Positions 21,433 through 39,723 of a DNA stretch of 64,000 nucleotides are shown here, in pieces. The stretch comes from an uncultured Chlamydiae bacterium. GTDB taxonomy: Bacteria > Chlamydiota > Chlamydiia > Chlamydiales > SM23-39. Under the pieces are notes generated by a model that saw only the letters and a program-made list of their open reading frames with translations, ran no database searches and was not told where the DNA came from. A program made the translations under genes and the position numbers. The DNA is taken from NCBI GenBank assembly GCA_963828125.1, contig CAWHDP010000002.1:640001-704000 (forward strand), read 5' to 3'. The first letter of the stretch is position 1. Each line of letters starts with the position of its first letter.

Positions 21433-21791
21433 CTTTTACTCTCCATGATTTTTGCACGATTTTTCGCAAGTTTTAGGTCTTCTAGTGGAGTCTTCTGCGT
21501 TTTTTTTATAAAACCATGCAGAAGAACTATTTCGCCATCAATCATCTTGAAAAGGACTCGAGCGATCCCCTTGGGAATATGCGAACGAATTTCCCAGAGA
21601 CCACTTCCGAGACTTTTAACCAAAGGCATTCCCAACGGCCACCTCAGCTGGACGATCCTGATGTCCCTACCTATCTCTTTTCGGCTTTCCTTATCGATTT
21701 CGGATAACCACTCCCTCACCGGTTCATTTCCACTTGGATTTTCACAGTAGAAAATGACAGGGATAGGTTGATGGGATGAATCCATTGGCAT
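21429..21791 (-). CDS. RelE/ParE (Gp49/HigB-like) toxin
   Basis: GNEPVREWL, LWEIRS and LLHGFIKKTQKTP motifs. Confidence 0.88.
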   Translation of the reverse strand: MPMDSSHQPIPVIFYCENPSGNEPVREWLSEIDKESRKEIGRDIRIVQLRWPLGMPLVKSLGSGLWEIRSHIPKGIARVLFKMIDGEIVLLHGFIKKTQKTPLEDLKLAKNRAKIMESKR

Positions 21792-22528: not shown

Positions 22529-23497
22529 ATGCGGGTTAGGGTTATTCTCGTTTTGGTTGCTTTGCTTATAAGCAGTTGCTCGATCACACAAAAGCAGGCA
22601 GTTCCATCTCCCAGCAGTACCATTATCTCAAAAAAAAATGCCTACTTTATCGAAGCATCCATCACAAAGCTGTCCTCTATACAGTGTCCATGCATAGATG
22701 TTGAAATCGATTCCAGACAATTTTCGATGGAACTTGACTTAGGCTTTCGAGGAGATCTTTCCATTGAAGAAGATCATATTGATCTGATTGTGGAAAAATC
22801 ATTTGTCCTCGAAAAGATCATGCATGGTGTTAGAGGTAAGCAATACCCAACCAAAATATATCGGATACCAAAAGCGAAGATTGGGAAAATGACGTTTATA
22901 AATCCGAGATTGGAAAAGGGCAGTCGAGAATTTACTAAAAACTCTACTTTTGTAGCCGATGGAGGCCGACCTTCCCCGAGAGAAGAAGGAAGAATCGGAT
23001 GGCACTTATTCCAGAAAGTCAACTTATTGATTGATATGAAAAATTCCCGAGTCGCTTTTTGTGACAGTCTGAATACTCTAGCAGAGCAGGGGTACCCAAT
23101 TGAAAACTTTATCAGAACGCCGCTCGTGCTTGACAACGGCCTAGTCCAAATCATCGGAAATACCCCTGAAGGCGCCTTGCATTGTATGCTCGATACAGGC
23201 GCTACTTGGAATATCTTAAACCGGGCGCTAAAGCCCCATCAATCCCTCGATAAAGCAGTTTGGGAACCGGAAAATATTTTAGAGTTTTCTTATTTTAAAA
23301 TAGATCAGGAAGATTTTGGCCCCATAAATTTTCATCGCATGCCGATTCAGCTTCCCTTTCTTGTTGATGCCATACTCGGAATTGAATTCTTTGAAAAAAA
23401 CCTTGTTTATCTTGATTTCGTGAGGGGATTTGCCTACTTTGCAAAAGATCAATCCATGACCACTAATGATGAGAAATGGAATCTGCGATTGAAGTAA
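22529..23497 (+). CDS. Lipoprotein with tandem retropepsin-like aspartic protease domains
   Basis: Lipobox LISSC; ELDLG and MLDTGA motifs; AILGIEFF. Confidence 0.65.
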   Translation: MRVRVILVLVALLISSCSITQKQAVPSPSSTIISKKNAYFIEASITKLSSIQCPCIDVEIDSRQFSMELDLGFRGDLSIEEDHIDLIVEKSFVLEKIMHGVRGKQYPTKIYRIPKAKIGKMTFINPRLEKGSREFTKNSTFVADGGRPSPREEGRIGWHLFQKVNLLIDMKNSRVAFCDSLNTLAEQGYPIENFIRTPLVLDNGLVQIIGNTPEGALHCMLDTGATWNILNRALKPHQSLDKAVWEPENILEFSYFKIDQEDFGPINFHRMPIQLPFLVDAILGIEFFEKNLVYLDFVRGFAYFAKDQSMTTNDEKWNLRLK

Positions 23498-24650: not shown

Positions 24651-25880
24651 ATGAACTCTAGCCATGCAATTCAAGCCAACCCTAATATTCAATCTGAAAC
24701 CTCTTATCGAGCAATGTTTGGAAATTTTTTTTTCTATGCAAAAAACAGCTTTCCTTGGCATATCTCTCGCATTGGGACTATGCGTTACTTTCCTGCCGTA
24801 TATGCTACTGCTGAAGTTGCATCGTCACTGTTAGCAGGGACGAAAGCTCTTTTCGCTTCATATCGTTACGGCAAAAATATTTTGCCCGGAAGTTTCTCAG
24901 AGACCCTATGTCAATTATCACCTGAAATATTAAAGAAATCTATTTGTCTTGTGTTATGCCTCGACTTTTCTGGCCTAGCACCTCAGCAAAAAGAGTACCG
25001 AATTGCTGCTGATACTTTCCTTCTTTTAGCAAGCGCTTTAGGAGGTATGAAAGCGTTAAAAGATGGGACTTCACAAATTCTCTCAATTGCAAACAATAAG
25101 GGAATAACTGTGAAAGAAAAAATTAAGAAATTGATCAGCGGAGGGCTCTTGATTTCGATGGGAGGATGGGTCTTGTCCCGCCTCTATCCTGCATCTATGA
25201 ACCTCTATCAAGGCTCGAAACTCTTTGATTCACTTTCTGATGAACAAAAAGAGGGTGTACTCAAATATAGATCCATCCATCACCTATCTAAAGAAAAAAT
25301 ATCGAATGCAGTCATTATTGATGGAATGTCTTCAAAATGGGGCGGGAAGATTGATGATATCCCTCTCTCTTTTGGTGAGCTCACCTATGAACAGGCTAAA
25401 ACCAGGTTCTATCGAGTTAATTCCAGCCAATCTTTTTGCAGTGCACTTGAAGATGCTTCTAAACAATTTGGAGAAAAAATACAAAACTTAGAAATCTTCG
25501 GCCACGGACTAAACCAAAATAGAGAAAATAGCAATCAGATGGTTAAAATGAATGTTGATTATTTTTTTGAAGGAACAAAACCAGAAACCGATTGCATTCT
25601 TAATAATCTAAAAGAGAAGAGTCAGTTATTTTTAATCAGCTGTAATTCTGCTACAAAAACAAATCTCATTTCTCTTGCAGAGAGAATATCTAAGACCCTT
25701 TCATCCATCTATGTGACGGGGATTGCCGCTTTCTTTAACCCTATGCTTATTTCTAGCTGGGTAGGACCTAATAACACACTCAACTTAGAATCTCACTTTC
25801 CTGGAGACTTGAATGACCAGGTAGTATTTCCTCAAAATACAATTGTCTATCCTCCAATGAATGAGTCAACTCCATGTTGA
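24651..25880 (+). CDS. Hypothetical membrane protein with a C-terminal GHG...SC domain
   Basis: Hydrophobic segments; LEIFGHG and LFLISCNSA. Confidence 0.55.
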   Translation: MNSSHAIQANPNIQSETSYRAMFGNFFFYAKNSFPWHISRIGTMRYFPAVYATAEVASSLLAGTKALFASYRYGKNILPGSFSETLCQLSPEILKKSICLVLCLDFSGLAPQQKEYRIAADTFLLLASALGGMKALKDGTSQILSIANNKGITVKEKIKKLISGGLLISMGGWVLSRLYPASMNLYQGSKLFDSLSDEQKEGVLKYRSIHHLSKEKISNAVIIDGMSSKWGGKIDDIPLSFGELTYEQAKTRFYRVNSSQSFCSALEDASKQFGEKIQNLEIFGHGLNQNRENSNQMVKMNVDYFFEGTKPETDCILNNLKEKSQLFLISCNSATKTNLISLAERISKTLSSIYVTGIAAFFNPMLISSWVGPNNTLNLESHFPGDLNDQVVFPQNTIVYPPMNESTPC

Positions 25881-25919: not shown

Positions 25920-27219
25920 CAGGGCGATTTAACTAAAATTTTTTGATAACAGATCTGGTAACATGGCATAGTAAATACCTCATATTTAAGGAGGTCCTAT
26001 GTCACGACGTAAACCGATTGATGCCAAAATCCTAGAAGCCAGTAAGGAATTCGACGCGCATATATTTGCAGAGACTGTCAAGGGGTCGTTTTTCGATTTC
26101 CCTGATTATCGACGCAACCAAAAACGAGTCTTGTACCCCGTTTGGTACCTATCCCTTGTGATTCTCTGCGGGTTCTTTTGCGGATGCAATACTATCGAGG
26201 AAATTGCCGAATATGCCCATCTACAAGAGGAATGGTTTGCCTCGCTACTAGGAGAACCGGTTTCAGCTCCTTCCCATGGATCGCTTTGGTGGTTTTTAGT
26301 CAAAACACCCCCGAACGCTCTCAAGAGCTATTTACAAAAATGGTTCAGTAAAATTCCTAGTTCATTGCGCGATCAACTGTTGGCGATCGACGGCAAAAGA
26401 CTGAGGGGGGCTAATTTTTTGGGCCGCATTACCCATGTAGTAGAGTTGTTCGCTGCAGAAGATCGTCTATGTCTTGCCGCAGAAAAAGTCCCCGATAAAA
26501 CGGTCGAGAAGAGCACACTGCCAATTATTTTGGAGCAGGTGGATGTAGAAGGTGCGATTATTTCGGGCGATGCTCATTTTACCGTACCTGAATCAGCAGC
26601 AAAAATCGTTGATGCAAAAGCAGATTATCTGTTGGCTGTTAAAGAAAACCAGCCCACTCTTTGCGCTGAGTTGGAAAATTTTTTCGATCAGGCACATGCA
26701 GCCGAATGGGAGGAAGTCTCACATTCATTTTACCAGGAAGTCGAAAAAGGTCATGGTCGAATCGATATTCGAGAAGTACAAGTCGTAGAGGACTTGGATT
26801 GGCTGCCTAATGTTGACAGATGGAAGAACTTGGTCTGCCTGGTCGAAGTACGATCCACAAGGCAAAAAACCGGATCAACCGCAAGCGAGACGTTAAGACG
26901 GCTGTATATTTCGAGTCGTCGAGCATCTGCCAAGCATTTTGCTAAGTGGACCAGGCAGCATTGGCACGTAGAAAACAATTGCCATTGGGTAGCTGATGTG
27001 ATCTTTAGAGAGGATGATGTGTTGATGGACAGAGGAAATAGCGCAGAAAATTTGGGGTTGTTTCGTCGCTTAGCTATGAATATGGCTGCAGTTGCAGATC
27101 CGGATAGAGGGCTTGCCTCTGTGAGACGAGCAGCGACTTTCGGTAGCGGATATCTGAAAGGAATATTGGCAAGATTTTTCTGTTCAGGCGTATCAAAAAA
27201 TTTTAGTTAAATCGCCCTG
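25920..27219 (+). mobile_element. Complete ISAs1-family insertion sequence, 1300 bp
   Basis: Perfect 29-bp IRs CAGGGCGATTTAACTAAAATTTTTTGATA; 10-bp target duplication GGTCTTCTTA at 25910-25919 and 27220-27229. Confidence 0.95.
25999..27210 (+). CDS. ISAs1-family DDE transposase
   Basis: AIDGKRLRG, AVKENQPTL, EKGHGRI and RQHWHVENNCHWVADVIFRED motifs. Confidence 0.93.
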   Translation: MSRRKPIDAKILEASKEFDAHIFAETVKGSFFDFPDYRRNQKRVLYPVWYLSLVILCGFFCGCNTIEEIAEYAHLQEEWFASLLGEPVSAPSHGSLWWFLVKTPPNALKSYLQKWFSKIPSSLRDQLLAIDGKRLRGANFLGRITHVVELFAAEDRLCLAAEKVPDKTVEKSTLPIILEQVDVEGAIISGDAHFTVPESAAKIVDAKADYLLAVKENQPTLCAELENFFDQAHAAEWEEVSHSFYQEVEKGHGRIDIREVQVVEDLDWLPNVDRWKNLVCLVEVRSTRQKTGSTASETLRRLYISSRRASAKHFAKWTRQHWHVENNCHWVADVIFREDDVLMDRGNSAENLGLFRRLAMNMAAVADPDRGLASVRRAATFGSGYLKGILARFFCSGVSKNFS

Positions 27220-27305: not shown

Positions 27306-27660
27306 TTTGAAAGATTTGACCTGGTACTTTCAGGAGGCCGGATGGGAAGCTAAGAGAAAACTGCTTGATTCGATCTTTCCGGCAAAATTGACTTTTCAAG
27401 ATGGAAAATATCGAACCGATGGGCTAAACCCAGCACTTGCGATTATCTTGCAGAAAACCAATGCTTTAGGAAATAAAAAATGTGGAGACACTTCCGTTTC
27501 TGAAAATGTCCCCGGGGATGTGCCCAGGACCGGAGCGTTCTCGAACCAATTTCTCGAAGGGATGAAGCAACTTTATGAACTTGAGCCCTTTATCAAGGTG
27601 AAGCCCTACCTTACAAATCAGTGGGAAAAGGGAGGTAGAGCAATAAAACATGCCTCTTGA
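27306..27660 (+). pseudogene. C-terminal remnant of a serine recombinase plus att-like junction and alternative tail
   Basis: 27306-27534 aligns without gaps to 39425-39653 (32 mismatches in 229 by hand count); frame continues GAFSNQFLEG...HAS. Confidence 0.85.
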
Positions 27661-27825
27661 CCGAGGGAATCTCTTAGATCTTAACTCCCTCCTACAAAAT
27701 AGAACCTCTTCTTAAGGGAGTGCAGGGGGACTGGTACCGTTCAAAAACAAAAAGTCTGGGAAATCTCAGCGGTTTTCTTTATAGATAATACAGACATCAC
27801 TATAAATTGAAAGGCCGCCGCTTCC

Positions 27826-29223
27826 ATGAAGAGAAACGTTATTAATAAAATCTGGGATCTACATATTGTAGAAAGTAAAGAAGAGTTCCCGGACATCCTC
27901 TCAATTGATCTTCATCTTCTTCATGAAGTTACCTCCCCACAAGCATTTGAGGTTTTGAGAAAAAGAGGATTGAAAATTCATGCTTTAGAACGAACCATTG
28001 CAACGGTAGACCACAATGTTTCGACAACCGCCGACCGCGAAAGACTTCCTAGCCTAGTAAGCCGGAATCAAATTCTAACACTTCGACGGAACTGTGAAGA
28101 TTTTGGAGTCAAACTTTGGGATATGGGAAGTGGACGTCAAGGGATTGTCCACATCATTGGACCAGAACAGGGACTCACACAGCCAGGTATGACAATTGTC
28201 TGTGGAGACAGCCACACCTCAACTCATGGAGCTTTTGGGGCTCTTGCCTTAGGAATAGGCACTACCGAAATCAGCTATGTAATGGCAACTGGATGCCTTT
28301 TGCTGCCCAAGCCCAAAACAATGAAAGTCCAGTTCAATGGGCATTTAGGAAAGGGAATCACGGCAAAAGATATGATCCTCAAGCTCATCCAAGTCATTGG
28401 TGTTCATGGAGCCAATGGGTATGTGCTTGAATATTGCGGCCCTGTCATTCGGAAATTATCGATGGAACAACGGATGACCATTTGCAATATGAGCATCGAG
28501 TGTGGCGCTAGAGCGGGGCTTGTATCTCCCGATGAAATTACCTATGAGTATATGAAAGGCAGGTTAGGTGCGCCAAAAGGGTCTCTGTGGGATCGTGCAG
28601 TAGCTCATTGGAAGTCTTTGGCGAGCACAGACCAATCGACATACGATCGGACCGTAGAAATCGAATTAGACCATCTTACCCCCCTTGTCACGTGGGGAAC
28701 AACCCCGGGTCAGTCAATCGGGATCGATCAGGAGATTCCTAGCCTAGAGTCAATGACTCCAGAGGAAGGTGAACTAGCGAAGAAATCCTTGGAGTATATG
28801 CGCCTTAAAGCTGGGCAATCTTTAGAGGGAGTGCCCATCGATTATATCTTTCTCGGTTCTTGCACGAACTCCAGAATCTCCGATTATCGAGAAGCGGCTA
28901 AGATTTTAAAAGGCAAACGGGTGGCTAAAGGCGTGACGGTCTATGTCGTACCAGGCAGTGAAGCAGTCCGTAAACAAATGATTGAAGAAGGCTTGGATCG
29001 CATCTTTATCGAAGCTGGCGCCGACTTCCGGCAGCCTGGTTGCAGCATGTGCCTAGGAATGAATGAAGATAAGTGCCCACCTGGAAAAAGGGTTGCCAGC
29101 ACAAGCAATCGCAATTTTATCGGTAGACAAGGACCTGGAGCTCTTTCCCATTTGATGAGCCCGATCATGGCTGCGGCTGCGGCAGTCGAAGGAAAGATCG
29201 TGGATGTGAGGAAATTTTTATGA
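27826..29223 (+). CDS. leuC: 3-isopropylmalate dehydratase large subunit
   Basis: HEVTSPQAF, CGDSHTSTHGAFG, GSCTNSR, PGCSMCLGMN and STSNRNF motifs. Confidence 0.96.
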   Translation: MKRNVINKIWDLHIVESKEEFPDILSIDLHLLHEVTSPQAFEVLRKRGLKIHALERTIATVDHNVSTTADRERLPSLVSRNQILTLRRNCEDFGVKLWDMGSGRQGIVHIIGPEQGLTQPGMTIVCGDSHTSTHGAFGALALGIGTTEISYVMATGCLLLPKPKTMKVQFNGHLGKGITAKDMILKLIQVIGVHGANGYVLEYCGPVIRKLSMEQRMTICNMSIECGARAGLVSPDEITYEYMKGRLGAPKGSLWDRAVAHWKSLASTDQSTYDRTVEIELDHLTPLVTWGTTPGQSIGIDQEIPSLESMTPEEGELAKKSLEYMRLKAGQSLEGVPIDYIFLGSCTNSRISDYREAAKILKGKRVAKGVTVYVVPGSEAVRKQMIEEGLDRIFIEAGADFRQPGCSMCLGMNEDKCPPGKRVASTSNRNFIGRQGPGALSHLMSPIMAAAAAVEGKIVDVRKFL

Positions 29224-29816
29224 GAGAAATTAAATCCCAAATTCTTCCACTGCCCTTTGCAGATATCAATACTGATTTGATTCTTCCGGCAAAATATCTT
29301 ACGACCACTGTAACGCACGGTCTGGGAGTTCATCTATTTACCGATATGCGAAAAATGGATCCTTCTTTCCCAATGAACCTAAAAAAATATGCCCATGCCA
29401 AAATCATTGTTACGCGACGCAATTTTGGCTGCGGCAGCTCGCGAGAACACGCCGCCTGGGCCCTTGTCGACCATGGCATCCGAGTGATTATTGCTCCCAG
29501 TTTTGGTGACATTTTCTACAGCAATGCAGTTAAAAACCATCTATTGCCTCTAGTACTTGACGCGGAGCTTATCGAACATATTTTCGCTGATGAAAAACAG
29601 AGTGTGGAATATATCGTCGATGTAGATCTCGTAGGGCAAAGAGTGACTCTTCCCGATGAAACAAGTTATTCTTTCGAGATCAATGGGTACGACAAACATG
29701 CTTTGATTAACGAAATTGATAACCTCGACTACCTGCTCTCACAACTCGATAAGATCAATGCTTTTGATGAAAGGTACCGAAAAAACATTTTTCTCGATAC
29801 CCATTCTCTTCATTAA
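29220..29816 (+). CDS. leuD: 3-isopropylmalate dehydratase small subunit
   Basis: INTDLILP, NFGCGSSREHAAWAL and SFGDIFYSN motifs. Confidence 0.95.
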   Translation: MREIKSQILPLPFADINTDLILPAKYLTTTVTHGLGVHLFTDMRKMDPSFPMNLKKYAHAKIIVTRRNFGCGSSREHAAWALVDHGIRVIIAPSFGDIFYSNAVKNHLLPLVLDAELIEHIFADEKQSVEYIVDVDLVGQRVTLPDETSYSFEINGYDKHALINEIDNLDYLLSQLDKINAFDERYRKNIFLDTHSLH

Positions 29817-30568
29817 TAATAAGCACCTTGTCGATAATCAAACTGTTTCCAAATGGAGCTCATCTCCAACATAATTTTCTCAACGGCAAGCCCCTTCCGA
29901 ATCACAGTCGGAACGTCCGTCAATTGGCCATTCGCACCTACCATCGAAACCATCACCCCCTGTTCATAGCGAGTGCTTGCATCTTCATTAGGTTGTTGCT
30001 TAGCCACATAATCATCAGCGTAAATAGCCGTGTCGATACCATTCAAGATCTGCTCACCAACTCCTTCCAATTGACCACGATTTCCTTTTCCAGAAGGGTT
30101 TGCCGATGAAGCAAAAACCAGGCGCTGATGATCCTCCCATAACTGCCTACAAATTGTTTCCGACGGTTTACCAAAGCAGATCACGAAACAGCTGGTATTA
30201 CGACTGTCCATAATGAGTTCGCGAGAGCCGTCAGCAGGGATATATCGATCCATCGCACTAGGCTGCCACGGCAAGATGCAGCCGAGCAAAATATCCTTCC
30301 CTTCGCAAGCTTTATAAAGGCGCTTAATTTCCTCATTCATTTGTGCCAGTTTCTCAACCTGCTCGATACTGCCGCAAAGCACTACGCCTGGCTTGGTACG
30401 TGACCGTCCCTTCAATACAAACTTTCTCTCCAATCCTGCACGATCTGCCGTTGCGATAATGTATCCCACCTTCGTCGGAGTAACGATCGTTTTGCCACCT
30501 TGCAAGAGCAAATCGGCAGTTCGCTTGAGAACTTCGTCATTGCCATCCCACCAACTATCCTTCTTCAT
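29813..30568 (-). CDS. Sua5/YciO/YrdC (TsaC-like) family protein
   Basis: PTKVGY, LKGRSRTKP and SSANPSG motifs. Confidence 0.75.
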   Translation of the reverse strand: MKKDSWWDGNDEVLKRTADLLLQGGKTIVTPTKVGYIIATADRAGLERKFVLKGRSRTKPGVVLCGSIEQVEKLAQMNEEIKRLYKACEGKDILLGCILPWQPSAMDRYIPADGSRELIMDSRNTSCFVICFGKPSETICRQLWEDHQRLVFASSANPSGKGNRGQLEGVGEQILNGIDTAIYADDYVAKQQPNEDASTRYEQGVMVSMVGANGQLTDVPTVIRKGLAVEKIMLEMSSIWKQFDYRQGAYY

Positions 30569-30577
30569 AAATCCTCC

Positions 30578-31726
30578 TTATGTATTAAACCGTTTTACTA
30601 GAACAATTAAGTCTTCGTCATAGACGCATTTCTTGCGGTCTGCAAGATCTTTGAAGGAAACAAATAGCTCATCTATAAACGCCCCAACGTCAATTCCCAA
30701 CTGCTGTAGCCGATAGATCAAAGCATGTTTCCCGGAATGTTTGCTTAAGACGATTTCCGTCGACTCAAAGCCTACATCTTTTGGGTCCATGATTTCGTAG
30801 GTCTGCTGATTCGACAACATTCCGTGCTGGTGAATTCCAGAACCATGAGCAAAAGCATTTTTCCCAACAATAGCCTTATTGGGAGGCGCTTTATACCCAG
30901 TAATTTCACTCAAAGCTTGGCTTATACCAACGAGTCCCGGCGTATGGATCGAGGTTTGGGCTCCATAGATATCGCTTTTGGTCTTCATAGCCATTACGAC
31001 CTCTTCCAAAGCTGCGTTCCCAGCTCTTTCCCCTACCCCGTTAATCGTGCACTCGATTTGCCCAGCACCTCTCAATACTCCCGTAAGGCTGTTAGCCACA
31101 GCAAGCCCCAAATCATCATGGCAGTGGGTTGAAATGATCGCCTTTTCAATTCCCTTCACATTGCTCCTTACATATGCAATCAAATCTCCATACTCTTCCG
31201 GAGTCATGTACCCCACTGTATCGGGAATATTGACCACATCAGCGCCAGCTGCAATGACAGCTTCAAGAACCTGTACGAGAAACTCCCGATCGGTCCGAGA
31301 GGCATCTTCGGCAGAAAACTCAACTCTAGAAGTAAAGATCCTAGCTTGGCTTACGCCTTTGATCGCCTTTTTAATGACCTCTTCCCGAGTCATTTTCAAT
31401 TTATGCTGCATATGGATCTCACTCGTAGCGATAAAGACATGAACGCGCGGCCTAGCCGCCTTTTCTAAAGCTCGAATCGCACAATCAATATCCTTTTCAT
31501 TGCACCGAGCCAAGGCACACACCTCTACATTTTGGCAGCTTTCTGCGATCGCTTGAACGGATTCAAAATCCTGCGGTGAGGCGATCGGGAATCCTGCTTC
31601 GATCACATCGACGCCAAGAGCTTCAAGTCTTTTGGCAAAGGCTACCTTCTCCTCTTTTTTCATTGCAAAACCCGGAGCCTGCTCTCCATCTCGGAGAGTT
31701 GTGTCAAATATACGAACATGCTTCAT
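30578..31726 (-). CDS. leuA: 2-isopropylmalate synthase, short form without the C-terminal regulatory domain
   Basis: FDTTLRDGEQAPG, HCHDDLG, GERAGNA and HGSGIHQHG motifs; ends at 382 aa. Confidence 0.93.
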   Translation of the reverse strand: MKHVRIFDTTLRDGEQAPGFAMKKEEKVAFAKRLEALGVDVIEAGFPIASPQDFESVQAIAESCQNVEVCALARCNEKDIDCAIRALEKAARPRVHVFIATSEIHMQHKLKMTREEVIKKAIKGVSQARIFTSRVEFSAEDASRTDREFLVQVLEAVIAAGADVVNIPDTVGYMTPEEYGDLIAYVRSNVKGIEKAIISTHCHDDLGLAVANSLTGVLRGAGQIECTINGVGERAGNAALEEVVMAMKTKSDIYGAQTSIHTPGLVGISQALSEITGYKAPPNKAIVGKNAFAHGSGIHQHGMLSNQQTYEIMDPKDVGFESTEIVLSKHSGKHALIYRLQQLGIDVGAFIDELFVSFKDLADRKKCVYDEDLIVLVKRFNT

Positions 31727-32660
31727 GACACACCTCCGATATAGAAAACTCTGATACCCAGCCCTTTGATTTAGGGTGCTCCATTTCGATCACACTTTGA
31801 AACTCTTGTCTGACCGCTCTGGCAATAGAGCCTTCCTTTCCATTTCCAATGATTCTTCCGTCTACGGAATCCGCGAAAATGACTCCAGCTGCCGTACCTG
31901 TCAAAAACAACTCATCGCAGGTATAAATCATCGATCGGCTAATCGGTTCATAACGGATCTTGTAGCCTTTGGTCTCCAGAAGCTCGATCACCGTTCTCAT
32001 TGTGATGCCCTCCAATACATCGGATCCTACGGGAGGAGTGAAAACTTCCCCTCGATGTACGATGAAAAGATTTGCAACGCTGGCCTCAACAATATTTTGA
32101 TTGTGGTCCATCATCAAAGCTTCGTCGTATCCAGCAGCTCTGGCATCCGTTGTGGCCATAGAGGAGTTCACATAACAGCCTCCAGCTTTAGCCTTTGTTG
32201 ACATCGCAGCATCGGAGATCTTTTGCCAACTAGAAATAGTCAGCCTCAATCCCTTATCGCTCTGGTAGTAGGACTTCAAAGGGATCATATAAACCCCAAG
32301 ATCAAATGTGAGTCCATTGTAGCAGACCCCGATCACTTCATTTTCAGAGTAGAGAAAGGGGCGAATATAAAAGTCCGATTCAGGACGGTTGGCTTCAATC
32401 AACTGAGCAATAATTTGCTCAAAATCCCCATAGGAAATATGAAATCCAAATCCCATAATCTTTGAGGCGTTCATCAACCTTTCATGGTGATCCCGCAATC
32501 TAAAAATTCGGACCTTTCCCTCTCGCACATAACCTCGAATTCCTGCAAAGCAAGTCGATCCATATTGCAAGCTATGGCTAGCCAGACTGACGGTTGCTTG
32601 TTCCTTTGGAACAATCTGATGCCCTTTAAAAGCAAAAGGCATAACGGATGGCGTTGCCAT
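31704..32660 (-). CDS. ilvE: Branched-chain amino acid aminotransferase
   Basis: LQYG, AKAGGCYVNS, GYDEAL, LEGIT and DELFLTGTAA motifs. Confidence 0.9.
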   Translation of the reverse strand: MATPSVMPFAFKGHQIVPKEQATVSLASHSLQYGSTCFAGIRGYVREGKVRIFRLRDHHERLMNASKIMGFGFHISYGDFEQIIAQLIEANRPESDFYIRPFLYSENEVIGVCYNGLTFDLGVYMIPLKSYYQSDKGLRLTISSWQKISDAAMSTKAKAGGCYVNSSMATTDARAAGYDEALMMDHNQNIVEASVANLFIVHRGEVFTPPVGSDVLEGITMRTVIELLETKGYKIRYEPISRSMIYTCDELFLTGTAAGVIFADSVDGRIIGNGKEGSIARAVRQEFQSVIEMEHPKSKGWVSEFSISEVCHEACSYI

Positions 32661-33717
32661 AAATATCCTCCTCTATTTTCCTATTGCGAATGATCTTAGC
32701 TATGGCATCTCCCATGCCTGCTGTTGTGCAAATTTTCTTTGAAGTGGCAATATCTTTAGTCCGATACCCAGCTGCGATCGCCTTTTGCACTGCATCGACG
32801 ATTGCATCGTGTTCGGCCTCCATTCCAAAAGAATACTTAAGCATCAGGGCAGCCGAAAGGATTTGACCGATCGGATTTGCAATGCCTTTCCCAGCAATGT
32901 CAGGTGCGCTTCCGCCTGCCGGCTCATAAAGTCCTTTTCCTTCTTTATTGAATGAAGCGGAAGGGAGCATTCCCAACGACCCGCCCCATATGCTGGCCAA
33001 ATCAGAAAGAATGTCTCCAAACAAATTTGGCATCAAAAGGACATCGAAATTCCGAGGATTTTTAGCTAATTGCATGGCGCAATTATCGACTAATATGTGT
33101 TCCACCTTACATTCGGGATATTCTTTTGAAACCTCCTCGACAACCTCCCGCCACAACTTGCTGCAATCCAAAACATTTGCCTTATCGACTGATGTGACTT
33201 TTTTACCCCTCGACATTGCGAACTCAAATGCCTGATGGGCGATCTGGCGAATCGCCCCTTCGCTATAGATCATCATGTCTTGGGCTACTCGCTCTCCAAT
33301 GCTCCCCGATGTTTCATGAGAGCCAAAGTAGACATCTTCAGAAAGTTCCCTTACGCAAAAGATATCTATCTCATTGCCAATCCCCTGAACAGGACGGACA
33401 TTGCAGTTCAATCCCATCTGGCTACGAATCGCCAAAATGCTATTCTTTTCACAATCCTTCCATTTAGGACTGCTCTGACTGCCTACCGGTCCGCCTACCG
33501 AACCAAATAAAATCGCATCCGCATTTTCGCAGATATCGGCTGTCTCTTGGGGAAAATGGGTTCCATGAGCATCCCATGCCGCTCCGCCAATAACAGCATA
33601 GTGGTAGATGAAGCGATGGCCGAAAATAGATTCGATCTCTTTCAACACTTTGATTGCTTCGGCCATAATTTCAGGCCCAATGCCATCGCCAGGAATAATT
33701 GCTATTGTTTTATCCAT
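32626..33717 (-). CDS. leuB: 3-isopropylmalate dehydrogenase
   Basis: GDGIGPEI, VDKANVL, NLFGDILSD and EPAGGSAPDIAG motifs. Confidence 0.96.
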   Translation of the reverse strand: MDKTIAIIPGDGIGPEIMAEAIKVLKEIESIFGHRFIYHYAVIGGAAWDAHGTHFPQETADICENADAILFGSVGGPVGSQSSPKWKDCEKNSILAIRSQMGLNCNVRPVQGIGNEIDIFCVRELSEDVYFGSHETSGSIGERVAQDMMIYSEGAIRQIAHQAFEFAMSRGKKVTSVDKANVLDCSKLWREVVEEVSKEYPECKVEHILVDNCAMQLAKNPRNFDVLLMPNLFGDILSDLASIWGGSLGMLPSASFNKEGKGLYEPAGGSAPDIAGKGIANPIGQILSAALMLKYSFGMEAEHDAIVDAVQKAIAAGYRTKDIATSKKICTTAGMGDAIAKIIRNRKIEEDIYGNAIRYAFCF

Positions 33718-33841
33718 TGTTATCTCTCCTAAAAAATTATTCAGCCGCTCTATTCCAGCTTGAAATATACAAGCAGAAATAAAGCGTTTATCTCGGATCT
33801 TTTTCCGAGCTATTTAGTTATAAAAAATCTGATTTGGTGAT

Positions 33842-33869
33842 AAAAAATGTTAAGCCCTTACAGGCTTAA
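33842..33869 (-). terminator. Putative attenuator hairpin overlapping the leader stop codon
   Basis: Minus strand TTAAGCC-TGTAAG-GGCTTAA followed by CATTTTTT. Confidence 0.55.
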
Positions 33870-33968
33870 AAGGAGGAGAGATAGTAAAGAAGAAAAACGA
33901 CGTGCAGGCGCGAAGCTTCGCTTAGAAGCTGCTCCGGCAAAAAAACTGTTGTTTTGTTGTGTTTTCAT
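33858..33968 (-). CDS. Putative leu operon leader peptide (36 aa)
   Basis: MKTQQNNSFFAGAASKRSFAPARRFSSLLSLLLLSL*; all 7 Leu lie in the last 9 codons; 140 bp upstream of leuB. Confidence 0.75.
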   Translation of the reverse strand: MKTQQNNSFFAGAASKRSFAPARRFSSLLSLLLLSL

Positions 33969-34150
33969 AACGTCATTTTTTTGTTAAATCTAACATTAAT
34001 TGTCAGACTGTATCACTATTATACAAATAATTTCCATTTATTACAATCCAAATGGATTGCATTTGAAAAAAAGCCTAGATATTTATATAATTCACTGAAT
34101 ACGAGTGTATTAAGAAATATTGACGTTCATTCACTTGAAGAAAATCTCCA

Positions 34151-34175
34151 TAACAACTAAGTTTATTAGTAGTTA
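34151..34175. promoter_or_regulatory. Inverted repeat upstream of abiEi, possible autoregulatory operator
   Basis: TAACAACTAA-GTTTA-TTAGTAGTTA (9/10 match). Confidence 0.35.
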
Positions 34176-34183
34176 AAGAGAAA

Positions 34184-35002
34184 ATGCTCAAGTATATGAA
34201 CGCAGAAACATTTCTAGCTCATAACCAGATATTTACGATAGAAGAGGCTAGAATCGCTCTTGAGATAGAGCGACCCGGGAGCACCCTTCATAATCTCTTA
34301 GCCTATCATCTCCAGAGAGGGCACATTGTTCGAATTCGCAAAGGGCTATATTACACCATTCCTAGAGGCGCAGATCCAACGACTTACCCAATCGATCCTT
34401 ACCTCATCGCCAGTAAAATGACCCAGGATGCGGTTTTGGCTTATCACACTTCACTGGGATTTCATGGAAAGCTTCATTCTTTGCGCAACAATTTTGTCTA
34501 CATTACTCAGAGAAAATTAAAACCTCCTTTTACCTTCCAAAACCTCCTCTTTAAAGGAATTTCTATTCCTAAAGGAACTTCACACGATATAAATTTTGGC
34601 GTCGAAACCATCGATTACCAAGGATGTAAAATCCGAGTTACCAATCTAGAACGCACTTTTGTAGACGTACTTGATCGGCCTGCCTTGATTGACGATTGGG
34701 AAGAAATTTGGCGCTCTTTAGAATCTATTGAATACCTCAATCTCCAGCAGGTATTGGCTTATGCCCGACTCCTCAACAATGCAACAACTTACGTTCGGAT
34801 TGCTTTCTTTCTTGATCAACATCGTGAAATGCTCAACCTCTCAGAAAAAGACCTATCCGTTTTTGATGCATTCAAACCAAAAAGCCCCCATTATTTAGCT
34901 CGCCTTAATAAAGAACCAAAACAACTCATCGCTCGATGGAATCTCATCGTTCCAAAGTCGTTGCTCCAAAGAAGTTGGGAAGAACCTCATGAAAATTTCT
35001 AA
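34184..35002 (+). CDS. Type IV TA antitoxin, AbiEi family
   Basis: N-terminal wHTH with RIRKGLY; VTNLERTFVD motif; overlaps the toxin start. Confidence 0.85.
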   Translation: MLKYMNAETFLAHNQIFTIEEARIALEIERPGSTLHNLLAYHLQRGHIVRIRKGLYYTIPRGADPTTYPIDPYLIASKMTQDAVLAYHTSLGFHGKLHSLRNNFVYITQRKLKPPFTFQNLLFKGISIPKGTSHDINFGVETIDYQGCKIRVTNLERTFVDVLDRPALIDDWEEIWRSLESIEYLNLQQVLAYARLLNNATTYVRIAFFLDQHREMLNLSEKDLSVFDAFKPKSPHYLARLNKEPKQLIARWNLIVPKSLLQRSWEEPHENF

Positions 35003-36350
35003 AGAACTACTTATTAGAGAATCCAGCAAAACAGGTTTTCGCCCTGAAATACTAGAAAAAGTTTGGCGCCTGATGAATGTGCTTGAGGGGATCTCTGGGC
35101 ATCCGTATTTGCAGGGACGACTCGTTTTAAAAGGTGGCACAGCTCTCAATCTTTTTATCTTTGATCTTCCCCGTCTTTCCGTCGATATCGATCTAAATTA
35201 TATAGGAATGCGGGATCGTGAAGGAATGATTGCCGAGCGTCCTTTAGTTGAAAAATCCCTAGAGGCTGTTTTCCAACGAGAAAATCTCACCATAAGGCGC
35301 ATCCCTGCGAAGCACGCTGGTGGAAAATGGCAGCTCAAATATCAAAGTGTCCTAGGTATCCAGGGCAATCTCGAAGTCGATCTCAATTTTATGTTCAGAA
35401 TTCCGCTTTGGGATATCCAAAAATGTTCATCTAAATTTGCAGGTCATCACCAAATCAGTGATATTCCCATCCTAGATCTTCATGAGCTTGCGGCAGGGAA
35501 GCTAACGGCTCTCTTTGCCCGCACTGCATCCCGCGACCTATTCGATACCCATCACCTTCTCACTAAAACACAGCTTAATCTCGAACAGCTGCGCTTGGCC
35601 TTCATCCTTTATATCGGGATGAGTTCAATTCAAGATTTTCAAAAGCTTTCTCCTGAATCCCTTTTATTTGATGAGGATGACTTTCAGCAGCAGCTTTTAC
35701 CCGTCTTGAGAAATGCCAAAAATCAGGAAGATTCTCGATCATGGAAAACCACAAAATTCCATGAATGCAAACAAGCTTTGGCGCAGCTCTTTCCTTTTAA
35801 GCCCCAAGAAGTGGAATTCTTGAAAAATCTCATTGAAAAAGGAGAAATCCATACCTCTCTATTGACAAATGATTCCGCCATGCAAAGCAAAATCGAACAT
35901 TTGCCATCTCTTCTATGGAGAGCTTCGCTTGCTAAATTGCCATTGCGCCAGGACATGAAAAATCTATCGCAAATCGAAGAACAGCTCTCATTAGGAAGAC
36001 TTATTGGCTCTGAAACTTACAAACACTTGCGAGGAGAAAATCTAAAATCTGCATGCGAAAAACTCATCCGAAATGGTCAAAGTGTAGATGACGATTCCTG
36101 GAATGGCCATCGTCCTCTTCACATGCTATTAAGACGCGGAGAAACTCAATCAGCGCTGCTTCTTATAGAAGCAAAAGCCGATATACATTCCACTGATCGT
36201 TCTGATCTGACTCCATTTCAAATAGCAGTGTCTATGGGAAACAAGAGAATTGCTGACTTGTTAATTTCCCTTGGAGTTCGAAAAATTGCTCCCCCAGGAA
36301 CGGGTTATGCGAACTATTATAACATGTATCATCAACTTCCTCCGAACTAA
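34989..36350 (+). CDS. AbiEii/AbiGii nucleotidyltransferase toxin with C-terminal ankyrin repeats
   Basis: LKGGTALN, RLSVDIDL, K-x-x-A-L and RDLFD motifs; GHRPLH and DLTPFQIAV ankyrin-like repeats. Confidence 0.85.
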   Translation: MKISKELLIRESSKTGFRPEILEKVWRLMNVLEGISGHPYLQGRLVLKGGTALNLFIFDLPRLSVDIDLNYIGMRDREGMIAERPLVEKSLEAVFQRENLTIRRIPAKHAGGKWQLKYQSVLGIQGNLEVDLNFMFRIPLWDIQKCSSKFAGHHQISDIPILDLHELAAGKLTALFARTASRDLFDTHHLLTKTQLNLEQLRLAFILYIGMSSIQDFQKLSPESLLFDEDDFQQQLLPVLRNAKNQEDSRSWKTTKFHECKQALAQLFPFKPQEVEFLKNLIEKGEIHTSLLTNDSAMQSKIEHLPSLLWRASLAKLPLRQDMKNLSQIEEQLSLGRLIGSETYKHLRGENLKSACEKLIRNGQSVDDDSWNGHRPLHMLLRRGETQSALLLIEAKADIHSTDRSDLTPFQIAVSMGNKRIADLLISLGVRKIAPPGTGYANYYNMYHQLPPN

Positions 36351-36814
36351 TGGAAAAAGAACCTGCAATGCCTGATAAAACAGAGAAAAAACAGGGAAAG
36401 TTTAAAAAAGGGCTCTCGGGAAACCCTCTTGGCAGACCAAGAGGAATCAGAAATAAAGCGACCATCGCAGCAGAAGCTCTCTTTGAAGGTGAGATTGAAG
36501 GAATCTGCCGCAAAGCCATAGAAGAAGCAAAGCGGGGAAACATTCAAGCAATCAAGCTTGTGTTGGATCGCATTCTTCCACCTAAAAAAGAAGCCTCTAT
36601 ATTTATTGACTTGCCTGCAATGAAAACCGGTTCGGATATTTTAGAAGCAATTCATAGAGTAGCTCAAGCCGTATCCCGTGGAGAACTCTCCCCTACAGAA
36701 GGAGATTGTCTAACCAGAATCATCGAAAGGCAAGCAAAAGTGATAGAGATGAATGATTTTGAGGAACGGCTTAAGAAATTAGAAGAACGGCAAATTCATG
36801 AAAGCCTCCATTAA
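36350..36814 (+). CDS. DUF5681 family protein (terminase small-subunit-like)
   Basis: FKKGLSGNPLGRPRG and AIKLVLDRILP motifs. Confidence 0.7.
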   Translation: MEKEPAMPDKTEKKQGKFKKGLSGNPLGRPRGIRNKATIAAEALFEGEIEGICRKAIEEAKRGNIQAIKLVLDRILPPKKEASIFIDLPAMKTGSDILEAIHRVAQAVSRGELSPTEGDCLTRIIERQAKVIEMNDFEERLKKLEERQIHESLH

Positions 36815-36971
36815 AAAGAGGCTGAAAAAGCTCGAAGAAACGCTAAAAGAAAAATCAGCTCCCCTAGATCCAGTTATCATTTACGATCCAGAGGCTCCTT
36901 TGCCAGACCTTTCACAATTCGGCGCCCAAGTCGTAATTCTTCTGCCCGATAATCGAAGACACCTATCTTGA
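36798..36971 (+). CDS. Small hypothetical protein (57 aa), not in the ORF track
   Basis: MKASIKKRLKKLEE...VVILLPDNRRHLS; overlaps the end of DUF5681. Confidence 0.5.
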   Translation: MKASIKKRLKKLEETLKEKSAPLDPVIIYDPEAPLPDLSQFGAQVVILLPDNRRHLS

Positions 36972-37033
36972 TTCCAATTTTCTTTTACATAAATATTACA
37001 TTCGTGTAAGGTCTGTCCTTTTAGGAGAAGTTC

Positions 37034-37876
37034 ATGCTGCGAAGAAGGACTTTCGTAGGTCTAGATGAGGAGAAAACTAACATTCCTGATAGAGGGGATG
37101 TTTTTTTGAGCCATGTTTACCATATCTGTCAGTCGGAAAAGATTCAGGATTTATTGACGCTTTTTAGAACAAGAACAGCTTACTACGATATGGATAAAGA
37201 CTGGCGCTTTTACCGTGTGCTCAGCCATTGGGATTCAAAGGGGCTCGTTGAATGCGAAAGAGAATCGATGGATGGTTGGAGAAAATTTAATCTGATCGAG
37301 GCATTGTGGGTCTCTGTTATTCAGAGATTGCGCCATTTGAACACTTCTTTAGGCGACATCGGTCATATAAAACCAAATTTCTTTGAAATAATCGATTGGG
37401 AATGCCCAATCTCATTGGCTGAATATTATGCTTTGTGCGCTGTTTTTCTAGAAAAACCTACATTTTTTGTTCTGGCTCCGTTATGGCGTGATTTTTTCTT
37501 CTATGAAGAGCTACAGGCAGCATTGGCAACAACCCTTTTTGAATCATGCATCATTGTTCAGCTCAATCCCCTCCTCAATAAACTGCTCCCGAAAGAAGGA
37601 GTCAAATCGCGATTTCCCTTTGAAAGCGGGATTACCTTTAAGCAACAAGAAATTCTCGAGACTCTTGCAAAAGAGGACTTCGATAAGATCACTTTTAGAA
37701 AAGAGAAAGGCAAGATCTATCGATGCGATATTGAAAAGGGATTTGCGCCCACTGTCTCTGAACATGAACTCAAGCAAGGACACAAGAATTTGACCATCAC
37801 GACGAACATAGTAGATGGACGAACTGCTTCTCGGACAAGAACGATTAAAAAACACCTTAAAGGATCTACCCAATGA
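37034..37876 (+). CDS. Hypothetical protein with a MerR-like HTH
   Basis: YRVLSHWDSKGLV...GWRKFN...LRHLNTSL; AGGAG upstream. Confidence 0.55.
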   Translation: MLRRRTFVGLDEEKTNIPDRGDVFLSHVYHICQSEKIQDLLTLFRTRTAYYDMDKDWRFYRVLSHWDSKGLVECERESMDGWRKFNLIEALWVSVIQRLRHLNTSLGDIGHIKPNFFEIIDWECPISLAEYYALCAVFLEKPTFFVLAPLWRDFFFYEELQAALATTLFESCIIVQLNPLLNKLLPKEGVKSRFPFESGITFKQQEILETLAKEDFDKITFRKEKGKIYRCDIEKGFAPTVSEHELKQGHKNLTITTNIVDGRTASRTRTIKKHLKGSTQ

Positions 37877-37972
37877 CCCACCAATATTTCGCACGGTCAA
37901 CTACTGTGTTTTTTAAATCGAAGATTTCTGCTGATGACCTCAAAAGAGTCTTGCTATTCGTCAAGGTAGTTC

Positions 37973-38161
37973 ATGCTTTCAGAAGAGAAAGCCATGGAGA
38001 TTCTCAATGGTTATGAGAGGAAATATTCTCGCAGCGAAGTAAAAATTATTAAAGAGTTTATAGAGAGGATCTGTCAAATCGAATATGAAATACTCTGCGA
38101 GAGACCAAAGACCGAAAACAGCGGTCATTTACACAAGGGTATCAACCGACGAGCAAGCTGA
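37973..38161 (+). CDS. Small protein overlapping the recombinase start
   Basis: 62-aa ORF overlapping the first 77 nt of the recombinase in another frame. Confidence 0.5.
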   Translation: MLSEEKAMEILNGYERKYSRSEVKIIKEFIERICQIEYEILCERPKTENSGHLHKGINRRAS

Positions 38162-39677
38162 GCATGGATTTAGCCTAGCTCATCAAGAGGATCTTTTGCG
38201 AAGAGAGTGTGCTCGCAAAGGAATTCAAATAGTCGAGCACTTTAGAGATGATGGATATAGTGCAAAAGATTTTAAACGCCCCGATTTTCAACGACTTCTC
38301 GACTATCTTAAACGACACAAAAAGCAAATCCAATACCTCTTTGTAACCAAATGGTGTCGTTTTTCAAGGGATGTTGCCAATACGATTCTGATGAATCGTG
38401 AACTCCAATCGTATGGAACTCGCGTTGTTACTCTGGATGATGGAGAAGAATCTGATAATCCAGCCAGTTTCCTGCTCACCATGCTCAATATGACTCTTCC
38501 CGAGATCGATAACCGTATCCGTTCAAGAAATACTCGGGCTGGGATATTGCGAGCTTTAAAAGAAGGATTCTATCCTTATGGCGGCTCTCCCAAAGGTTAT
38601 TCCAAGGATCGAAGCAGTCAGAAAACACCTTTGCTAATTCTCAGTGAATTAGCGCCTTTAGTGAAAGAAGCATTCGAGGTTTTTGCAACAGGTGCTTTTC
38701 CTATTGAGGATGTTCGGAAGGCATCGTGGAAAAATGGGCTCAAATTGCAGCGTAGTCAGTTCGGACAGATGTTAAGAAATCCGGTTTACATGGGAAAGAT
38801 CTATGTTCCAGAAACGGAGAGCGAGGAGGCTCGTTTAGTCAATGGAGTCCACGAAGCTATTGTTCCCGAAGATCTCTTCTTGAAAGTGCAGAAAATCTTG
38901 ACCAAACGACTGGAAACAAATACGCATCTTTGCGCTAAAGAAAAGCTACGAGATGAACTCCCTTTGAGAGGACATTTGAAATGCCCTCAATGTGGAAAGA
39001 ACTGGACAGGAAGCATCTCTTCCGGAAATGGAGGAAAGTATCCCTATTACCATTGCGAAAAAGGATGCAAAGCGCGAGCAAGTGCCGCTACCGCTCATGA
39101 ACAGCTCTTTCAATTCCTGGATACTCTTCAACCTCCTCCCGAAGTCATCGACCTTCAAATGGCGATGATGGAAGTGCTTTTTAAGGCAAAAGAAGGAGAT
39201 AGAGATCAGCAAATCAAAAAGCTTCGAGCTGAGGTGGAGCAGCACAAACAAAATCTTTTGAAATTTGATCAGCAGCGATTCATATCAGGGGAATTGGAAG
39301 CGGATTCTTACCAGAGACTAAAAACTCATACTCTCGGAGAACTCGACAGACTAAACCTCAAGATCTCTGATTTGGAAATCTCAGATACGGCCTTTCAGAA
39401 GTATGCACGGTATGGAATGAGTCTTTTGAAAGATTTGACCTGGTACTTTCAGGAGGCTGGATTGGAAGCTAAGAGAAAACTGCTTGGTTCGATCTTCCCG
39501 GCAAAATTGACTTTTCAAGATGGAAAATATCGAACCGATGGCCTGAATCCGGCTTTGGCAATTATCCTACAGAAAACCAAGAACTTAGAAAGTGCAAAAA
39601 ATGGAGACATTGTCATTTCTGAAAATGTCTCCGGGGATGTGCCGGCGACCGGACTCGAACCAGCATCTTATTGCTAA
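38085..39677 (+). CDS. Large serine recombinase (resolvase, recombinase and Zn-ribbon domains)
   Basis: YTRVSTDEQ catalytic Ser, RPDFQRLL, RFSRD, NPVYMG and CPQCG...YYHC motifs. Confidence 0.93.
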   Translation: MKYSARDQRPKTAVIYTRVSTDEQAEHGFSLAHQEDLLRRECARKGIQIVEHFRDDGYSAKDFKRPDFQRLLDYLKRHKKQIQYLFVTKWCRFSRDVANTILMNRELQSYGTRVVTLDDGEESDNPASFLLTMLNMTLPEIDNRIRSRNTRAGILRALKEGFYPYGGSPKGYSKDRSSQKTPLLILSELAPLVKEAFEVFATGAFPIEDVRKASWKNGLKLQRSQFGQMLRNPVYMGKIYVPETESEEARLVNGVHEAIVPEDLFLKVQKILTKRLETNTHLCAKEKLRDELPLRGHLKCPQCGKNWTGSISSGNGGKYPYYHCEKGCKARASAATAHEQLFQFLDTLQPPPEVIDLQMAMMEVLFKAKEGDRDQQIKKLRAEVEQHKQNLLKFDQQRFISGELEADSYQRLKTHTLGELDRLNLKISDLEISDTAFQKYARYGMSLLKDLTWYFQEAGLEAKRKLLGSIFPAKLTFQDGKYRTDGLNPALAIILQKTKNLESAKNGDIVISENVSGDVPATGLEPASYC

Positions 39678-39723
39678 GAGTAGATTTTGAGTCTACCGCG
39701 TCTACCAATTTCGCCACGCCGGC
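39640..39723 (-). tRNA. tRNA-Leu(CAA), CCA not encoded
   Basis: GCCGGCGTGGCGAAATTGGTAGACGCGGTAGACTCAAAATCTAC...GGTTCGAGTCCGGTCGCCGGCA; long variable arm. Confidence 0.95.

Follow-up and report, generated by a model that had tools for sequence, protein, structure and literature searches.

A leucine-gene cassette within a tRNA-Leu-associated genomic island of a soil chlamydia

Introduction

Chlamydiae are described as having lost the synthesis of branched-chain amino acids and as living on import (PMC11323580, PMC11140210), and a pathway table in PMC11317633 lists leucine synthesis for one genome with reduced metabolism. How, then, did a set of leucine genes come to lie beside a tRNA-Leu gene in an uncultured soil chlamydia (genome G000), what might these genes make there, and how might they be controlled? 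The locus is part of a 64,000-nt stretch of DNA (GenBank assembly GCA_963828125.1, contig CAWHDP010000002.1, positions 640,001 to 704,000), hereafter the window, to which all coordinates refer unless otherwise stated. The island under study spans positions 27521–39643 (12.1 kb) and includes a leu cassette of 6.3 kb.

An earlier note on this DNA had proposed a toxin–antitoxin-stabilized integrative element that restores leucine production to an intracellular auxotroph and brings its own leucine-sensing regulation. All the genes that it listed are present at the positions and in the order given. The locus is real and horizontally acquired, and it is narrower in function than first proposed. In the literature searched, we found no description of leu genes or of such islands in chlamydiae; most subscription papers and the supplements of metagenome-assembled genome surveys, which may tabulate leu genes, lie outside that coverage.

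Genes, edges, distribution, tree conflict, selection and missing ilv genes were computed directly. The phylum sample comprised 400–401 genomes, and 13 congeners of G000 were compared. G000, which is placed among chlamydial relatives (family code f1), is 95% complete, and the other leu carriers are 83–98% complete; f7 denotes a second family, and other genomes and loci bear G and L codes, respectively.

Results

The leu genes are cargo of an integrative element

The segment 27521–39643 is a true element with the leu block as its cargo, because genome G368 (f7) holds the leu-free backbone at the same tRNA. There, an arm followed by abiEi, abiEii, DUF5681, MerR-like and recombinase genes occupies about 7 kb and shows 78% DNA identity to the backbone of the window over 5.6 kb. 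The arm that forms the left end of the element (27521–27728) was matched in 50 of 400 genomes, often on the same strand as such a recombinase and at a rough distance of 5–10 kb from it. The matches in other genomes end at the same GGCA or GCCA that terminates the tRNA and, beyond this edge, related arms run into unrelated DNA or into the native tRNA terminator; past the G368 arm lies a hairpin with a U tract, much like the terminators situated after an unoccupied tRNA in related genomes. The integrative element proposed at this tRNA-Leu, with these same edges, is thereby borne out.

Relatives of the large serine recombinase (E value of 1e-60 or better) were found in 35 of 401 genomes, and 19 of the 20 best recombinase loci abut a tRNA gene, namely tRNA-Leu(CAA) in 10 cases, tRNA-Phe in five and another tRNA-Leu in four. 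Across the family, the targets are tRNA-Leu with anticodons CAA, TAG, TAA and GAG, together with tRNA-Phe. On viral contigs, relatives of the recombinase were 23–30% identical at most, and plasmids contained none at E 1e-40. Cargo differs in other members of the family and includes a type I restriction methylase and, elsewhere, a beta-eliminating lyase accompanied by an AlaX-like gene. We rejected a link between the tRNA-Leu(CAA) target and the leu cargo: this target is a habit of the family whatever the cargo, and the leader described below contains no TTG codon.

The locus could be retrieved from 12 of the 13 congeners, with the tRNA visible in 10. A recombinase adjoins the tRNA in two of them, being 95% identical with one stop codon in G002 and a remnant in G005, and G001 retains remnants of the junction and arm. 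Recombinase at the tRNA end, common core at both ends, empty site in relatives and deviant composition, the traits by which site-specific genomic islands are defined, were all found. The G+C content is 0.45 in the cassette and 0.42 in the backbone, against 0.51 on both flanks; the earlier note had recommended such a compositional analysis. Codon-usage distance (43–85th percentile) did not set the leu genes apart. Their G+C content at third codon positions is low, not extreme (13–27th percentile).

At about 27520, the earlier note had seen a degenerate copy of the tRNA 3′ junction. The repeat is real, with 229 nt in direct orientation (27306–27534 and 39425–39653; 86% identity), but it consists mostly of the 3′ end of an older recombinase plus the tRNA-end junction, and the far junction of the element itself codes for a recombinase C-terminus. 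Fusion of the arm to an older recombinase 3′ end is as expected of a new integration at an already occupied tRNA.

The low-GC region extends further left, to a tentative outer edge at about 21100; for two congeners, the sequence 3′ of the tRNA has its match at another place in G000. A RelE/Gp49-type toxin with a helix-turn-helix (HTH) antitoxin lies at the left end of this region (21154–21791), with a related copy at G000:C2:631880-632113. Between 21920 and 27520 there are a DUF5681 start fragment, an IS21 fragment, an ISAs1 copy and two unassigned open reading frames (ORFs; 22529–23497 and 24651–25880); ISAs1 has perfect 29-nt inverted repeats and at least seven near-identical copies in G000. 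The ISAs1, the IS21, this second toxin–antitoxin pair and the DUF5681 fragment appear to be leftovers from elements that arrived before. At G000:C2:1668790-1671904, 1066908-1067006, 1644736-1644831 and 1817650-1817690, there are further remnants of recombinases or junctions of this family; three of them have ends that resemble tRNA-Phe, and the fourth is at tRNA-Leu(CAG).

A chimeric assembly is argued against, as far as testable, by a single unbroken contig of 10,745 nt over 27393–38137 in the probable source run (depth 11.6, with 13.7 and 12.8 on the flanks), a run that may be the source and is hence not independent. In X4, a run that belongs to a separate and independent study, the cassette and its junction with the arm at leuC were covered at 95–98%, leu was joined to the abiEi side and the abiEi-MerR segment was covered at 90%, with hardly any coverage of the flanks. 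No RNA data set was among the runs listed for this sequence. The leu-bearing element thus appears to exist in a second host.

The attachment site probably lies inside the recombinase gene

A peptide of 45 aa is encoded in the arm, in the reading frame of the recombinase. Among 25 other arms, changes at codon positions 1, 2 and 3 numbered 155, 94 and 304, respectively, and single-base codon changes were synonymous in 171 cases and non-synonymous in 80 (four of 30 loci, incomplete at the start, were excluded). The predicted recombinase reads 564 aa across the circular junction, against 530 aa when integrated, where its last codons are tRNA antisense. This pattern suggests that attP, the attachment site of the element, lies inside the recombinase gene and that integration would swap the C-terminus of the enzyme. 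Integrases with attP within their own gene include those of phage Mx8 and of the archaeal SSV1 type, in which integration likewise splits or swaps the recombinase C-terminus and the target is a tRNA. These are tyrosine recombinases, whereas the chlamydial island is non-phage and encodes a large serine recombinase.

The cassette was acquired horizontally

As the earlier note had supposed, leu genes are rare in chlamydiae, LeuA being detected (E 1e-60) in nine of 401 genomes. We counted eight carriers, after dropping G404 and G301, which have no leuB, leuC or leuD within the 10 and 20 kb retrieved, and adding G029, with leuCDB at a contig end. The neighbours of LeuA in G404 (L138) gave the impression of being non-chlamydial, possibly through bin contamination. 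None of the 13 congeners has LeuC beyond aconitase-level matches. Close copies with the same convergent layout occur in four genomes, G359 (locus L039), G210 and G278 of f7 and G401 of f1. The cassette is 91.8% identical to that of L039 at the DNA level over 6,455 nt, part of the element arm included, and its synonymous divergence (dS) from an f7 genome is 0.24–0.47. LysS of G000, on the other hand, is 69–76% identical to those of the four close-copy carriers (69% to L039, where a flanking protein is 56% identical).

The phylogenies of leu genes and LysS are in conflict. The concatenated leu tree (eight rows) groups G000 with G359 and G210 (support 100/99) and rejects G000 with G401 in the approximately unbiased test (p-AU 0.00028), whereas the LysS tree (six rows) groups G000 with G401 (100/99) and rejects G000 with G359 (p-AU 0.0005). 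Vertical descent of the cassette is rejected by this conflict, and the cassette was horizontally acquired; vertical synteny in relatives, named beforehand as an outcome that would overturn a horizontal origin, is contradicted by the topology tests and by the congeners.

Homology of the cassette to other carriers stops at 34003–34053. The G278 copy lies near tmRNA and that of G401 beside topoisomerase genes, neither with backbone nearby, and the contig of a third carrier has no element DNA around the cassette. With four different insertion contexts, the cassette is not bound to this element. The record of the G278 locus (L040) is labelled Acidobacteria, probably wrongly, its contig matching chlamydial genes of G000 and its genome being placed in the same taxonomic order. 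More distant chlamydial clusters (G230, G199 and L180) read leader-leuC-leuD-leuB-(ilvE)-leuA, and leuCD was probably inverted in the ancestor of the close copies. About 2 kb from the distant operon of G230 is an ORF that looks like a tyrosine integrase (L137:1427-2620).

In an 83-row LeuC phylogeny, three gammaproteobacterial sequences, of which one is labelled Coxiella, fall together with those of chlamydiae (Shimodaira–Hasegawa-like approximate likelihood ratio test, SH-aLRT, 97); its sampling was restricted by the search patterns used and it names no donor. We found no close non-chlamydial donor, LeuC being 50–57% identical to the other 77 of the 80 loci kept from 582. The nearest named relatives of IlvE are labelled Parachlamydia, Chlamydiales, Rhabdochlamydia and Patescibacteria, and IlvE alignment detected no cassette on viral contigs.

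The leu genes might instead be an old vertical relic, lost in most chlamydiae, beside which the island merely landed. The LeuC grouping, which implies a long history in the gene pool, and the backbone-free cassettes of G278 and G401 would agree with this. The cassette nevertheless sits between both ends of the element, and its low dS to f7, its different contexts and the topology tests leave the relic largely refuted and very improbable.

The cassette most likely converts valine to leucine

LeuA, LeuB, LeuC, LeuD and IlvE all exceed curated NCBIfam cut-offs, and all six cassette genes have intact frames under purifying selection, the ratio of non-synonymous to synonymous substitution rates (dN/dS) being 0.03–0.11 in 22 of 23 pairs and the remaining pair being saturated. 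LeuA passes NF002086 and, being short, fails TIGR00973 (571, cut-off 599). The allosteric domain PF08502 was not found in it, in the four close copies or in G199, and is present in three longer relatives; the linker subdomains align up to residue 377. Short-form LeuA is presumably active, in keeping with the LeuA2 profile and the structure 4ov4.

Leucine synthesis requires 2-ketoisovalerate. Neither IlvC nor IlvD was found in G000 (controls, 14 of 14), nor was IlvB, a weak match to which is MenD; chlamydial-type IlvB, IlvC and IlvD queries also gave no match. G000 encodes a BrnQ-family carrier, and tblastn revealed no ilvE other than that of the cassette. IlvE was found in none of the 13 congeners. 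IlvD matched in nine of 400 genomes and coincides with leu genes only in G199 and G029. The ilvE gene is inside the leu cluster in all six carriers without IlvD or true IlvC, and outside it in G199, which has both; five of these six are related copies, leaving about two independent cases. Because ilvB, ilvC and ilvD were not found in G000, we consider that the cassette most likely converts valine to leucine through IlvE and does not make leucine de novo, so that import of valine or of its keto acid is still required. The branched-chain amino acids of C. trachomatis compete for BrnQ, their transporter (PMC11140210).

The earlier note had favoured full de novo prototrophy, kept by the toxin–antitoxin pair. 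The complete set of LeuA-D and IlvE speaks for it, as does an AbiE pair that is intact and under purifying selection. That version is nonetheless hardly credible, with acetolactate synthase, reductoisomerase and dehydratase not found in this 95%-complete genome and with AbiE present in leu-free elements too, some members of the family having other pairs in its place.

The enzyme set corresponds to the leucine-only A* variant of gut bacteria, defined by LeuA-D and IlvE without upstream ilv genes (PMC9026213). It has the same enzymes and the same missing ilvB, ilvC and ilvD; it differs in its obligate intracellular chlamydial hosts, its mobile island, its own leader and the short form of its LeuA. 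A distinct Ile/Val module of chlamydiae was seen in L182 (ilvB-ilvC-PALP enzyme-ilvD-ilvE), and IlvD is present in G127, G203, G368, G220, G029 and G199, most without a LeuA match. The Leu and Ile/Val modules seem to travel apart.

Alternatively, the cassette could mainly supply 2-ketoisocaproate to a branched-chain keto-acid dehydrogenase, for membrane fatty-acid primers, with protein leucine secondary. G000 does encode a fused E1 alpha-beta 2-oxoacid dehydrogenase (674 aa), presumably of branched-chain specificity, as in Chlamydia, and a LeuA without leucine feedback domain and a sole branched-chain aminotransferase would suit this role. We regard it as improbable: the only codons that the leader counts are those for Leu, an indication that charged tRNA-Leu is what is sensed, and the congeners do without any IlvE.

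The cassette also contains a TsaC-like gene, whose product scores 54.8 against TIGR00057 (cut-off 123) and retains the KxR and SxN motifs; a canonical tsaC is elsewhere in G000, and relatives of the TsaC-like protein are found beside ABC transporters in two plasmids. Absent from the G278, G230 and G199 clusters, it was rejected as a fixed part of the pathway.

A Leu-rich leader precedes leuB

Upstream of leuB is a leader peptide of 36 codons with seven Leu among the last nine; no other of the 15,896 short ORFs in G000 is of this type. It is conserved in all five close cassettes and before three distant chlamydial-type clusters, and all 200 shuffled versions of its region fold less well (z −6.1). 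Leucine is likely, with some confidence, to be sensed by ribosome occupancy at this leader. Of the leucine-sensing regulation proposed in the earlier note, a basis thus exists in a leader that it had not listed, but the MerR-like gene is not tied to leucine; also a backbone gene of leu-free elements, it was rejected as the sensor.

The Leu codons are predicted to pair with the Shine-Dalgarno (SD) sequence of leuB in five of five close copies. With the first Leu codons masked by the footprint of a ribosome, the predicted energy for opening the leuB start drops from 13.6 to 3.1 kcal/mol; the corresponding drop in the four other close copies is 5–11 kcal/mol. For the close-copy clade we therefore lean, on these models, towards a read-out by SD masking. 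Several observations tell against this scheme. The effect of stalling was not seen in G230, G199 or L049; the SD helix shows no compensatory change, and the spacer hairpin shows four; equally good pairing occurs in 610 of 5000 synonymous recodings and at 33 of the 408 starts that bear an SD (p ~0.1); and leuCD, on the opposite strand, is beyond the unit of the leader, with unconserved upstream DNA.

With the same anatomy and metabolism, the leader could act instead on transcription, by Rho or through a stop-in-loop hairpin and U-rich tail. Nine of 10 leaders, some without SD pairing among them, form a hairpin that carries the stop codon within or at its loop, with differing stems, and a terminator-like match (33869–33850) and a pyrimidine-rich spacer are present. 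G401 and L065 have a weak U tract or none, no antiterminator is evident in the folds, the hairpin with its weak U tract overlaps the stop, and the SD helix is predicted in all the close copies. This alternative is possible, and we favour SD masking over it.

In Actinobacteria, the Leu codons of the LEU element pair with the SD of the first gene, and mutant data against simple codon sensing there are cited in the same source (PMC1262725). A similar pairing is predicted for the chlamydial leader. The leader is not directly before leuA, as that text has for the LEU element, but precedes leuB (leuC or ilvE in relatives), and it has a stop-in-loop hairpin; the folding methods used do not predict pseudoknots. 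Likewise, the S. aureus ilv-leu attenuator has a short Leu-rich peptide before a biosynthetic operon, but with a terminator past the stop and an antiterminator (PMC5794164), whereas in the chlamydial leader hairpin and stop overlap and the folds gave no antiterminator. An Rfam scan of the window from 20000 to 41000 matched the tRNA alone. Enterobacterial leuL is another short Leu-rich leader peptide before a biosynthetic operon, of the terminator/antiterminator type.

Leaders of other kinds were noticed in related loci. In G029, two short Ile/Leu-rich ORFs 5′ of leuC (L038:2355-2800), each followed by a strong hairpin and a long U tract, look like tandem classical attenuators. Ser/Leu-rich leaders precede ilvE-leuACDB and leuACDB in two gammaproteobacterial loci (L065:5099-5215 and L049:8206-8283, respectively); the L065 genome, of completeness not established, gave no IlvD match. 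About 240 nt 5′ of leuC in G278 there is a 14-nt copy of the leader stop-hairpin motif (L040:9750-9790), perhaps a trace of the ancestral leader position.

Backbone genes and features of the locus

AbiE, DUF5681 and MerR-like genes, listed in the earlier note after the leu genes, proved to be backbone common to leu-free elements. Adjacent AbiEi and AbiEii profiles (PADLOC) identify an AbiE type IV toxin–antitoxin system. As described for that type (PMC7450476), AbiEi accompanies a DUF1814-type nucleotidyltransferase; the AbiEii of the window differs in the C-terminal ankyrin repeats on the toxin. The ankyrin tail is also present on a different toxin type in related elements L222 and L230 (43% identity over 136 aa), which suggests a C-terminal module common to distinct toxin types. 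A link between AbiEii and tRNA-Leu was set aside as speculation; in PMC7450476, tRNA-Leu activity is only weak and is that of a different toxin. The MerR-like protein is 81–96% identical to those of leu-free elements, and Atlas clusters carry MerR_1 on 49–80% of members.

Table 1. Features of the island and its junctions (window coordinates).
Feature	Position	Strand	Evidence or remark
ISAs1 copy beside older recombinase remnant	25920-27219		IS (insertion sequence) ends
Older recombinase 3′ remnant, outside element, same tRNA	27306-27520	+	83% aa identity to intact recombinase
Distal att core (left edge of element; GGCA on tRNA strand), joined here to the recombinase 3′ end of an older tandem element	27521-27524	-	
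Conserved distal arm	27521-27728	+	27523-27660 codes for 45-aa split-off recombinase C-terminus
leuC, 3-isopropylmalate dehydratase large subunit	27826-29223	+	TIGR00170 648.8 bits (cut-off 560); dN/dS 0.03-0.06
leuD, 3-isopropylmalate dehydratase small subunit	29220-29816	+	TIGR00171 159.5 (cut-off 116)
TsaC/Sua5 paralogue, SMU.1377c type, accessory	29813-30568	-	PDB 3l7v E 4e-76; below TIGR00057 cut-off
leuA, short form, 382 aa	30578-31726	-	NF002086 598 bits (cut-off 532)
ilvE, branched-chain aminotransferase	31704-32660	-	TIGR01122 266 (cut-off 246)
leuB, 3-isopropylmalate dehydrogenase	32626-33717	-	TIGR00169 392 (cut-off 353)
Leader region	33717-33968	-	36-codon Leu-rich peptide 33968-33858; stop-codon hairpin 33869-33850
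Candidate sigma-70-type promoter for leader-leuB-ilvE-leuA-tsaC-like	34018-34046	-	10/12 consensus match only
abiEi antitoxin, backbone	34184-35002	+	PADLOC AbiEi E 3e-93; 78% to leu-free G368 element
abiEii nucleotidyltransferase toxin, C-terminal ankyrin repeats, backbone	34989-36350	+	PADLOC AbiEii E 6e-102; Pfam AbiEii and Ank
DUF5681 protein, backbone	36350-36814	+	PF18932; beside recombinase in several other elements
MerR-HTH protein, backbone; candidate regulator or directionality factor	37034-37876	+	PF13411, weak
Large serine recombinase, 530 aa integrated	38085-39677	+	Resolvase, Recombinase and Zn ribbon domains
tRNA-Leu(CAA), integration target	39639-39723	-	ARAGORN and Rfam
Proximal att core	39640-39643		Same 4 nt as distal core

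Discussion

We consider the following explanation probable as a whole, its statements on activity, flux direction, excision and regulation being inferred. A 12.1-kb serine-recombinase island of a widespread chlamydial family would have acquired the 6.3-kb leucine cassette, which circulates among chlamydial families, and would have inserted itself at the tRNA-Leu(CAA) 3′ end, ahead of the decayed remains of an earlier element; with the attachment site inside its recombinase gene, integration would swap the C-terminus. BrnQ would import valine, which IlvE would deaminate to 2-ketoisovalerate; LeuA, LeuCD and LeuB would extend this to 2-ketoisocaproate, and IlvE would aminate the product to leucine. 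LeuA would be without feedback control, and the Leu-codon leader would turn on leuB-ilvE-leuA when ribosomes stall as leucine runs short, the switch most likely being the freeing of the leuB ribosome-binding site.

Other results count against parts of this explanation. We saw no excised circle or empty-site joint in four contig sets, which drop rare forms. The element has no relaxase, mating apparatus or other transfer gene, every ORF being assigned otherwise; an F-type TraC was not found in G000 and is present in two of the eight genomes searched. The leu tree, with eight rows, leaves the direction of transfer unoriented, and absences of ilv genes mean 'not found' in genomes 83–98% complete.

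Each part has a precedent, in the leucine-only pathway, the LEU element, the Buchnera leu replicon and attP within an integrase; the combination in chlamydiae and the island family were not found in the literature searched. Buchnera pLeu reportedly holds leuABCD on a plasmid of an intracellular bacterium, and is similar to this locus in placing leu genes on a mobile replicon of such a bacterium and different in being a plasmid, not an island; Buchnera has the upstream ilv genes and provisions its host. A bolder synthesis, which we offer tentatively and hold to be rather less probable than not, is that an undescribed island family of environmental chlamydiae, small and with a tail-swapped serine-recombinase switch, traffics plug-in amino-acid modules between families, and that the leucine module rebalances host amino acids, from valine to leucine, controlled by a novel class of leader that responds to ribosome occupancy and has its stop codon in a hairpin loop, a class that would also occur before a gammaproteobacterial leu operon.

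From this locus emerge a family of serine recombinases that target tRNA genes and have predicted att sites, and a leader whose mechanism is open to simple reporter tests. It indicates that part of a lost pathway was regained and passed between chlamydial families, recently enough for 92% DNA identity. It thus bears on gene exchange and on adaptation to host nutrition in obligate intracellular bacteria, and is a sign that cell-bound bacteria swap metabolic abilities.

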